Assembly: GCA_902767245.1 (NCBI GenBank)
Contig: CACXGO010000018.1
Span: 27,708 to 91,707 of the forward strand
Direction of reading: 5' to 3'
Source: an uncultured Erysipelotrichaceae bacterium
Lineage (GTDB): Bacteria; Bacillota_I; Bacilli_A; RF39; UBA660
Length of the DNA stretch: 64,000 nt
Shown: in pieces, positions 4,414-5,064 of the stretch
Numbering within the stretch: position 1 is the first letter of the stretch
Layout of the letters: the number at the start of each line of letters is the position of its first letter
Made by a program: the position numbers and the translations under genes
The notes under the pieces: generated by a model
What the model was told of the DNA's origin: nothing
Seen by the model: only the letters and a program-made list of their open reading frames with translations
The model's database searches: none

Positions 4414-4568
4414 TTCTCAACACCTAATAACATTTTACCACAAATAAGCAAAAATAAGAAATTTTATTTATATAAAAAGGAAAATAAAACTAAACAAAGT
4501 ATATTAAAAATAGAGGAGCATAAAAAATTACCTTGGACTTTTTTATTACAAAGAAGGAGGTGATCAGT

Positions 4569-4670
4569 ATGAGTAAAAGATATTATATAATAAGTCTTTT
4601 AAGGCATATTATAAAAATCCTTCTTATTCTACTAATACTTATTCTCGTAATAAAAATAGATATTAGTTAG
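4569..4670 (+). CDS. 33-aa hydrophobic peptide, type I toxin-like (copy 1); absent from the ORF track
   Basis: ATG at 4569 is preceded by AAGGAGGTGAT. The product is MSKRYYIISLLRHIIKILLILLILILVIKIDIS: a basic N-terminus, a single TM and a short polar tail. It is conserved in copy 2. Confidence 0.6.
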   Translation: MSKRYYIISLLRHIIKILLILLILILVIKIDIS

Positions 4671-4723
4671 AAATAGCTAATATCTAAAAAAGAAAACCCA
4701 AGGTAACACATAAGTGCTCCTCT
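4650..4723 (-). ncRNA. Candidate antisense sRNA (type I antitoxin-like) convergent with the copy 1 peptide
   Basis: Minus-strand promoter TTTACT (4757-4752), 16-nt spacer, extended -10 TGATATAAT (4738-4730). The 11-bp GAAA-loop hairpin (4659-4684) is followed by TATTTTTATT on the minus strand only. The RNA would overlap the last ~7 codons and the 3' UTR of the peptide mRNA. Ends are predicted, not mapped. Confidence 0.5.
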
Positions 4724-4873
4724 ATAAATATTATATCATAATAGCGAATAAAGTAAATAAAATTTTTTTATTAATTTAAGCAGAAAAATAAAACCAAATA
4801 AAGTATATTAAAAATAGAGGAGCACTGAAAAAATTACCTTGGACTTTTTTATTACAAAGAAGGAGGTGATAAT

Positions 4874-4975
4874 ATGAGTAAAAGAAATTATATATTAAGC
4901 CTTCTTGGACGCATAATATTAATACTTTTTATTCTATTCTTACTTATTCTCGTAATAAAAATAGATATTAGTTAG
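4874..4975 (+). CDS. 33-aa hydrophobic peptide, type I toxin-like (copy 2); absent from the ORF track
   Basis: ATG at 4874 is preceded by AAGGAGGTGAT. The product is MSKRNYILSLLGRIILILFILFLLILVIKIDIS. Substitutions relative to copy 1 keep the frame and the hydrophobicity. Confidence 0.6.
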   Translation: MSKRNYILSLLGRIILILFILFLLILVIKIDIS

Positions 4976-5027
4976 AAATAGCTAATATCTAAAACAACAA
5001 TCCAAGGTAACACATAAGTGCTCCTCT
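4955..5027 (-). ncRNA. Candidate antisense sRNA (copy 2)
   Basis: Same architecture as copy 1: TTTACT (5061-5056), 16-nt spacer, TGATATAAT (5042-5034), and hairpin 4964-4989 followed by a minus-strand T-run. Confidence 0.5.
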
Positions 5028-5064
5028 ATAAATATTATATCAAAATAATGAATAAAGTAAACAC

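Follow-up and report, generated by a model that had tools for sequence, protein, structure and literature searches.

In a 64,000-nucleotide (nt) stretch of contig CACXGO010000018.1, from an uncultured Erysipelotrichaceae bacterium (hereafter the window), the region between def and a small yjcZ-like gene contains two head-to-tail units of ~305 nt, each of which is probably a type I toxin-antitoxin-like module of a new family, the two units being tandem paralogues. Each unit has an open reading frame (ORF) for a very small membrane peptide, a pair of arms predicted to close the messenger RNA (mRNA) around that ORF, and a promoter on the opposite strand from which a short antisense RNA would overlap the mRNA 3' end. 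An earlier reading made from the letters of the DNA alone (the sequence-only reading) had proposed such a toxin-antitoxin pair, and the proposal gains support in silico from a second tandem pair on a metagenomic contig (L041), from selection on the ORF, covariation in the RNA, conservation of the antisense promoter and terminator, predicted masking of the Shine-Dalgarno sequence (SD), and absence of the module from relatives.

Genomic context and organization of the tandem units

The window has 25.9% G+C, nearly all of its genes lie on the plus strand, and the median intergenic gap is ~32 nt. The def-yjcZ gap measures 708 nt and is the largest in the window without a plausible gene. The module is flanked by def (3865-4413, minus strand) and by a gene for a 54-aa (amino acid) protein of the YjcZ_2 family (5122-5286, minus strand). 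The sequence-only reading had placed it between def and ftsW; this was correct on the def side only, the real neighbour on the other side being the yjcZ-like gene. Its two tandem units of ~305 bp (base pairs) were recovered (~4460-4765 and ~4766-5066, together 4460-5066), with a period of 304-305 nt and ~88% identity overall. The coordinates that it had assigned to the individual elements were all borne out, and the elements exceed chance. They are the following, together with a related hairpin outside the module:

4500..4505, plus strand: unit 1, candidate sense -10 box TATATT, proposed from the sequence and not picked up in a consensus scan
4511..4536, plus strand: unit 1, bipartite 5' arm, half a TAGAGGAGCA and half b TTACCTTGG (pattern match and fold; clamp helices 1 and 2)
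4554..4564, plus strand: unit 1, Shine-Dalgarno sequence AAGGAGGTGAT (sequence)
4569..4670, plus strand: unit 1, 33-codon ORF, product MSKRYYIISLLRHIIKILLILLILILVIKIDIS, candidate toxin (translation and selection analysis)
4635..4656, plus strand: unit 1, predicted downstream anti-SD, 3' part of the ORF pairing with 4540-4563 (full-length fold, helix 3)
4657..4686, no strand assigned: unit 1, stop-codon GAAA hairpin of 13 bp (helix 4; three pairs with compensatory change)
4698..4724, plus strand: unit 1, bipartite 3' arm CCAAGGTAA-N7-GTGCTCCTCTA (pattern match and fold)
4730..4757, minus strand: unit 1, antisense promoter TTTACT-16-TG-A-TATAAT (promoter scan and conservation)
4648..4723, minus strand: unit 1, predicted antisense RNA of ~76 nt, candidate antitoxin (fold z -3.4; ends placed from the promoter and the T-run)
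4804..4809, plus strand: unit 2, candidate sense -10 box TATATT (sequence and alignment)
4815..4842, plus strand: unit 2, bipartite 5' arm, half b being the anti-SD (pattern match and fold)
4860..4870, plus strand: unit 2, Shine-Dalgarno sequence AAGGAGGTGAT (sequence)
4874..4975, plus strand: unit 2, 33-codon ORF, product MSKRNYILSLLGRIILILFILFLLILVIKIDIS, candidate toxin (translation and selection analysis)
4962..4991, no strand assigned: unit 2, stop-codon hairpin, predicted minus-strand terminator (fold)
5002..5028, plus strand: unit 2, bipartite 3' arm (pattern match and fold)
5034..5061, minus strand: unit 2, antisense promoter TTTACT-16-TG-A-TATAAT (promoter scan and conservation)
4953..5027, minus strand: unit 2, predicted antisense RNA of ~75 nt (fold)
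5072..5097, minus strand: native terminator hairpin of the yjcZ-like gene, outside the module, with the stem GATATTAG/CTAATATC common to the module hairpins

The two window copies, W1 and W2, differ by 17 substitutions in the ORF, all within codons 5-23, and are 100% identical over the ~170 nt that make up the arms, the SD region, the hairpin and the ends of the ORF; 4828-4870 in unit 2 is identical to 4522-4564 in unit 1. Together with the two copies on L041, MA and MB, they make up the four copies compared below.

A second tandem pair and a patchy distribution

A profile built from the two window peptides and searched against 1.84 billion representatives gave one match, P0125 (E 2.4e-14), located on a contig of 597 nt, L041, which comes from a rumen metagenome according to its record name. 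P0125 (156 aa, L041 73-543) is a gene-call artefact, in which a TAG codon was read as sense, fusing two ORFs of 31-32 aa and the spacer between them; this miscall is the sole reason why the family is visible at all in protein databases. L041 carries two more tandem modules, with ORFs MSKRYYILSLLRYILLILFILFLLILVIKEY and (GTG)SKRYYTLSILLLIVLILFLLVLLIFVIKKDI. In these modules the arms are divergent, hairpin and antisense promoter are of the same type, and the right flank differs from that of the window. The contig is barely longer than its two units.

Further searches were negative: P0125 as a query returned only itself, exact look-up of the peptides in a collection of 15 billion proteins found nothing, and a TTG-extended query of 45 aa was also without a match. 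Scans for the arm pattern in GTDB genomes, JGI metagenomes and IMG/VR gave single chance matches with no module around them; this pattern is specific to the window and would not match the arms of L041, so that such scans miss divergent copies and do not measure prevalence. Two patterns made from motifs conserved in the four copies had no match in IMG/VR, a four-copy nhmmer profile run over the window and 41 loci yielded no additional copy, and blastn with the module and tblastn with the peptides against plasmids and phages gave nothing relevant.

We reached relatives through homologues of FtsW (75-84% identity) and of YjcZ (same 90%-identity cluster), and the module is absent from all 15 syntenic loci. 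In the 14 relatives with readable DNA, the start of def and the yjcZ terminator are ~60-110 nt apart, and the fifteenth, for which a gene table only is available, has no room for a module of 600 nt. The 605 nt are accordingly peculiar to this lineage, through a gain here or through losses in all the others. An independent Logan assembly of the same species (ERR3211447_15674; L008/L040) codes for an identical FtsW, has its end inside unit 2, within the 3' arm, and has the right junction in common with the window, indicating that the module is real and that it breaks short-read assemblies. Exact look-ups for other assemblies of the same species led with FtsW and YjcZ to this 2.3-kb Logan contig only, and with Def and DnaG to none on record. 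Tandem modules of this kind fragment short-read assemblies and are probably under-represented in metagenome-assembled genomes.

The peptide ORF is under purifying selection

The 33-codon ORFs encode the peptides exactly as quoted in the sequence-only reading, each preceded by the SD sequence already given, with a spacing from GGAGG to ATG of 8 nt in unit 1 and 7 nt in unit 2. The GAGGTGAT of the SD region is invariant in the four copies, and none of the four has lost the SD, the start codon or the reading frame, the ORF length being 31-33 aa. The peptides have one predicted transmembrane helix, an MSKR head and a tail K(I/E/K)(D/Y)(I)(S), and their hydrophobic core (residues 7-28) has a grand average of hydropathy of 2.9-3.5 across the copies.

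The four-copy comparison shows purifying selection on the ORF: pairwise ratios of nonsynonymous to synonymous substitution (dN/dS) are 0.05-0.35, changes between copies number 1-4 at second, 6-10 at first and 7-14 at third codon positions, and the two other reading frames of the region are closed by many stops.

No named toxin-antitoxin family fits the module. The peptides have no match in Pfam, NCBIfam, PADLOC or PHROGs (0 Pfam families at E<=1), Rfam gave only noise (E-value threshold on 3800-5600 and L041; gathering threshold on the whole window), and the motif MSKRYY is absent from the literature searched, all in line with the earlier remark that the peptide resembles no recognised family. 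At the gathering threshold, the 64 kb contain no Rfam family at all (no riboswitch, T-box or ribosomal leader), and they contain no tRNA gene.

The predicted mRNA closes on itself and masks its Shine-Dalgarno sequence

The arm pattern TAGAGGAGCA-N7/8-TTACCTTGG is found on the plus strand at 4511-4536 and 4815-4842, and as its reverse complement at 4698-4724 and 5002-5028, four matches, whereas 100 shuffles give none and the rest of the 64 kb has no other. The proposed pairing of the 5' and 3' arms around the whole ORF is recovered in the predicted folds, in which the complete mRNA forms one long rod, with free energies of -70.4 kcal/mol for unit 1 (z -9.6) and -75.5 kcal/mol for unit 2 (z -12.1) relative to shuffles. 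All four copies share this architecture, with z-scores of -9.6, -12.1, -7.5 and -5.8. As for the hairpin at the stop codon (4657-4686 and 4962-4991), its position, its GAAA loop and the T-run on the minus strand only are as first described, but it folds with 13 bp (one of them G·U) and not 11.

A four-copy consensus structure comprises 78 pairs, with 93.2% of cells paired. Compensatory changes occur in 10 pairs, a count reached by 2 of 500 shuffles, versus 0-5 in slid controls. Between W1 and W2, 23 of the 26 variable columns fall outside the 63 shared pairs, and the remaining three keep the pairing. The plus strand is more stable than the minus strand by 5.8-18 kcal/mol and has 6-11 G·U pairs, indicating that the selected structure is that of a plus-strand RNA and not of a DNA palindrome.

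The SD is predicted to be masked in two successive ways. In the nascent RNA (first ~65 nt) of all four copies, half b of the 5' arm, AUUACCUU, and the U-run that follows it are predicted to pair with AAAGAAG-GAGGUGAU, covering the SD. In the full-length fold, half b pairs instead with CCAAGGUAA in the 3' arm, a look-alike of the SD, and the SD/start region pairs with ORF codons ~23-29. The CUCCU in the 3' arm, earlier taken for an anti-SD, thus turns out to pair with the 5' arm and not with the real SD. In the full-length, the antisense-bound and the 3'-truncated models alike, accessibility calculations leave the SD largely paired; when the 3' region is blocked, the modelled probability of an unpaired SD falls in all four copies, from 0.36 to 0.03 in W1, from 0.28 to 0.20 in W2, from 0.33 to 0.30 in MA, and from 0.38 to 0.25 in MB.

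Hexamers of the type TAnnnT are aligned 5-6 nt before the 5' arm in all four copies. The sense -10 box TATATT has neither a good -35 nor a TG, and is predicted to be weak, with a predicted start of the unit 1 mRNA at ~4511-4513.

A near-consensus antisense promoter

The antisense promoter TTTACT-16-TG-A-TATAAT (4757..4730 and 5061..5034) provides the two best promoter-like sites of the region (10/12 plus TG), so that the minus-strand promoter of the sequence-only reading, TTTACT with a 16-nt spacer, is confirmed in both units as near-consensus and top-scoring. Its TGATATAAT is invariant in the four copies and its -35 TTTACT is kept in three. Across the window, extended -10 motifs follow the orientation of the genes.

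Transcripts from these promoters are predicted to run from ~4723 to 4648 and from ~5027 to 4953, with a 5' stem-loop, a U-rich linker and a terminator, the latter made of the stop-codon hairpin followed, on the minus strand only, by the T-run AUUUUUAUU. Hairpin and T-run are conserved in the four copies, and this layout matches the antisense RNA of ~75 nt originally envisaged. Such an RNA would overlap ORF codons ~27-34 and the 3' untranslated region (UTR), and be complementary to the stop hairpin, an A-rich linker and the 3' arm. A hairpin of the same type with a T-run ends the yjcZ-like gene in all relatives with readable DNA, making it plausible that AT-rich hairpins terminate transcription in this clade.

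The minus strand also has a 14-codon mini-ORF, MCYLGFSFLDISYF, after GAGGAG and ATG (4708-4664 and 5012-4968). We considered a coding antisense RNA and rejected it: the mini-ORF is 25 aa long in L041 copy A and has no ATG in copy B, and is probably not a conserved coding feature.

A proposed mechanism

We propose that a weak plus-strand promoter would give rise to an mRNA, 215 nt or longer, for a single-transmembrane peptide of 31-33 aa. In the nascent 5' UTR, half b would mask the SD and block co-transcriptional translation. Once complete, the mRNA would refold into the rod, with the 5' arm clamped onto the 3' arm, the 3' part of the ORF paired to the 5' UTR, SD and start codon, and the 13-bp hairpin over the stop codon; such refolding would make the primary transcript stable and poorly translatable. 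The strong convergent promoter TTTACT-16-TGATATAAT would give the antisense RNA of ~75 nt, starting in the 3' arm, ending at the stop-codon hairpin and complementary throughout to the 3' end of the mRNA. It may nucleate, through its U-rich linker and UUUC loop, on the single-stranded A-rich linker and GAAA loop of the mRNA, and the resulting sense/antisense duplex of ~75 bp would be a substrate for RNase III. Being complementary to the 3' arm, the antisense RNA would also compete with the 5' arm; by capturing the 3' arm it may free the 5' arm, whose anti-SD would then re-lock the SD.

A bolder version, which we regard as rather unlikely, is that the antitoxin is a mimic of the toxin mRNA's 5' end, having the same start as the 5' arm (UAGAGGAGCA...UUACCUUGG), so that a three-state switch would be built from one motif, with promoter, leader and terminator common to the signals of def and yjcZ. 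If so, the module would have been assembled from local promoter and terminator parts, or these housekeeping signals would have been domesticated from a decayed module.

The neighbouring yjcZ-like gene and the origin of the parts

The 54-aa product of the neighbouring gene is Gly/Tyr-rich, with a single helix, and matches PF09680 YjcZ_2 (22.5 bits versus a cut-off of 21); a small gene adjoins def at this position in 14 of the 15 relatives. Within the 64 kb, GATATTAG/CTAATATC is a stem confined to the two module hairpins and the native terminator of yjcZ; relatives have it once each, at the yjcZ terminator, with the exception of L010, where the stem is slightly different. At the other end, unit 2 aligns by its antisense promoter and 3' arm (5024-5055) to the promoter and leader of def in the relative locus L030 (z 6-7, 0 of 300 shuffles), CTATAAATATTATATCAAAATAATGAATAA in unit 2 corresponding to CTATAAACATTTTATCACAAATGAATGAAAAA in the L030 def leader; the window's own def leader (4411-4462) no longer scores. 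Either the module may have borrowed local signals, or the def promoter and yjcZ terminator may descend from it. We rejected the possibility that the module peptide is an inverted yjcZ-like paralogue, as only a 16-residue transmembrane similarity, judged composition-driven, and the hairpin speak for it.

Beyond the yjcZ-like gene, FtsW (5394-6620) has 408 aa, with an N-terminal extension of ~13 residues compared to the 395-aa orthologues of most relatives, otherwise found only in P0006 (406 aa). Elsewhere in the window, the plus strand has a tandem pair of 144-aa ORFs at 32011-32886 (32011-32445 and 32452-32886), followed at 32919-33656 by a pair of predicted membrane proteins of ~110 aa with similar sequences (32919-33263 and 33333-33656).

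Alternative explanations

The most serious alternative is that the units are genes for a non-toxic small membrane peptide with an accessory or regulatory role, having a structured, long-lived mRNA and a cis-antisense regulator. We hold this to be improbable, though it deserves attention: selection on the coding sequence and on the RNA fits it equally well, and YhzE-2, a small, hydrophobic, tandem Firmicute peptide with a 3' antisense RNA, showed no toxicity in an assay (PMC2887945), a member of its family adjoining the module here. On the other hand, translation would be blocked three times over, by anti-SDs upstream and downstream and by the clamp, which has been described as a hallmark of toxin mRNAs (PMC6733600), a strong antisense promoter opposed to a weak sense promoter has also been described as such, and absence from 15 syntenic relatives combined with tandem occurrence in two contexts is the pattern of a dispensable selfish module rather than of a housekeeping gene. 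We give very little credence to a palindromic, non-autonomous repeat such as a miniature inverted-repeat transposable element (MITE), in which the arms would be terminal inverted repeats and the ORF and promoters incidental. A ~300-nt unit bounded by inverted repeats extending over 21-23 nt, inserted relative to relatives, present in at least two contexts and breaking short-read assemblies would suit such an element; however, the arms covary with G·U pairs that work only in the plus-strand RNA, purifying selection acts on the ORF, whose SD and start codon are conserved, and no clear short target-site duplication was seen. Scattered copies without the ORF, which the sequence-only reading had named as favouring a MITE, were not seen either: there are no other copies, with or without the ORF, in the 64 kb or in ~240 kb of related loci. 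Equally remote is a functionless local rearrangement, a mosaic of a duplicated def promoter/leader and a yjcZ terminator mimicking a gene/antisense pair. The shared hairpin stem and the alignment of the right end of unit 2 to the L030 def leader would be explained by it, but conservation of the promoter, the hairpin, the arms and the ORF extends to L041 despite a different right flank, selection on the ORF and on RNA pairs is measurable, and W1 and W2 diverge only within codons 5-23, with the ~170 nt of structured RNA nearly identical.

Several points nonetheless weigh against the toxin-antitoxin interpretation. Family and database searches did not link the module by homology to any toxin or antitoxin with experimental validation, and of the YhzE/YjcZ-type peptides, suggested as type I toxins for comparable reasons, the one put to the test, YhzE-2, showed no toxicity (PMC2887945). 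Accessibility calculations, in which a translational 'ON' conformer was sought, gave none that clearly exposes the SD, a difficulty for any production of the peptide. The terminator scan does not call the AT-rich stop-codon hairpin, and the consensus scan gave no sense -35 and no sense-strand terminator, so that the mRNA ends are guesses. The covariation comes from ~3 independent sequences, the four copies representing two loci and the window stems being identical. Copy W1 may be attenuated, with K16, R12 and H13 inside its hydrophobic stretch. Finally, the two transcripts with their ends, the order in which the RNA folds, the role of RNase III and the toxicity of the peptide are inferred.

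If the toxin-antitoxin interpretation is correct, it would add a type I family to an uncultured, very AT-rich, small-genome lineage of Bacilli/'Tenericutes'-like bacteria where none has been described, whose members appear to come from ruminant guts. Standard pipelines are blind to the module: its ORF is missing from the 15-billion-protein collection and its sole trace is a mis-called read-through product, and the breaking of assemblies by the tandem repeat suggests that such modules are systematically under-sampled in metagenome-assembled genomes.

Comparison with known type I systems

Recognised hallmarks of type I systems are a primary transcript that is not translatable, anti-SD sequences, a long-distance 5'-3' interaction and metastable hairpins (PMC6733600), as well as tandem duplication, a peptide below 70 aa that has a transmembrane segment and ends in a polar C-terminus, and ORFs overlooked by gene callers (PMC2887945); in Gram-positive families the antisense RNA overlaps the 3' end (PMC8594479). 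The present module has a small transmembrane peptide with a polar tail, tandem copies both in the window and on L041, and a patchy distribution; a primary transcript with a sequestered SD is predicted, with conserved pairs, and a putative antisense gene is suggested by a near-consensus promoter and a hairpin/T-run in all four copies.

YhzE-like peptides have themselves been proposed as type I toxins, an RNA having been seen with a probe overlapping the 3' end of yhzE-2 (Fozo et al. 2010; PMC2887945). The YhzE/YjcZ family (PF09680), to which the neighbour gene belongs, comprises small single-helix Firmicute peptides, often in tandem (PMC2887945). Unlike these, the module peptides lack Gly/Tyr-rich termini, have no PF09680 match and are encoded on the opposite strand.

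Small hydrophobic ORFs of ~30 aa in tandem within one intergenic region are also known from zorO-orzO/zorP-orzP, ibs-sib and ldr-rdl of E. coli, where similarity likewise extends beyond the coding sequence, gene callers miss the ORFs, and some strains lack them and have a shorter intergenic region (PMC2887945). Their antitoxin, however, is 5'-divergent or fully overlapping, and there is no homology. From Fst/RNAII (par) the module differs by the lack of an Fst match in Pfam/NCBIfam and by the U-run of its hairpin being on one strand only, with no bidirectional terminator. Of the likenesses to txpA/RatA, bsrG/SR4 and fst drawn by the sequence-only reading, the predicted 3'-overlapping antisense RNA is retained and the fst parallel is not, the architecture of the mRNA being closer to hok/AapA.

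With txpA/RatA, bsrG/SR4, bsrE/SR5, bsrH and yonT of Bacillus subtilis, the module has in common a strong antisense promoter and an antisense RNA that is predicted to be 3'-convergent over the end of the ORF. SR4 acts doubly on bsrG, through decay and through sequestration of the SD, and here too the terminator loop is a plausible first contact, and binding at the 3' end may tighten SD sequestration and trigger decay (PMC3834814). The overlap is, however, much shorter than in the txpA/RatA and bsrG/SR4 group, at ~75 nt, and there is no detectable homology of peptide or RNA. A bipartite 5'-3' clamp enclosing the whole ORF has to our knowledge not been described for mRNAs of the txpA/bsrG type.

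Such a clamp recalls hok/Sok and aapA/IsoA, which also encode small hydrophobic peptides in several copies per genome, and whose transcripts are inert through a 5'-3' interaction, with the SD masked by an upstream and then by a downstream anti-SD; the succession predicted here, upstream anti-SD, downstream anti-SD and clamp, is the one known from aapA3 and hok (PMC6733600). These systems belong to Proteobacteria (hok/Sok in enterobacterial plasmids and chromosomes, aapA/IsoA in Helicobacter), whereas the host of the module is a low-GC Bacilli-like bacterium, and the module has no match to Hok_Gef, other Pfam toxin models or Rfam antitoxins. Moreover, their antisense RNA is internal to the mRNA, covering its 5' region or the ORF, and has a 3'-processed mRNA as its target, whereas that of the module would be convergent, at the 3' end, and target the 3' arm of the clamp. 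The wiring thus appears to be a variant combining a clamp of the hok/AapA type with a 3' antisense RNA of the txpA/bsrG type aimed at the clamp's 3' arm. This RNA design would unite solutions so far described separately, the clamp and sequential anti-SDs of Gram-negative hok/AapA systems and the 3'-convergent antisense RNA of Gram-positive ones, and an antitoxin directed at the clamp would offer a compact, testable model coupling the folding of an mRNA to the binding of its antisense RNA.

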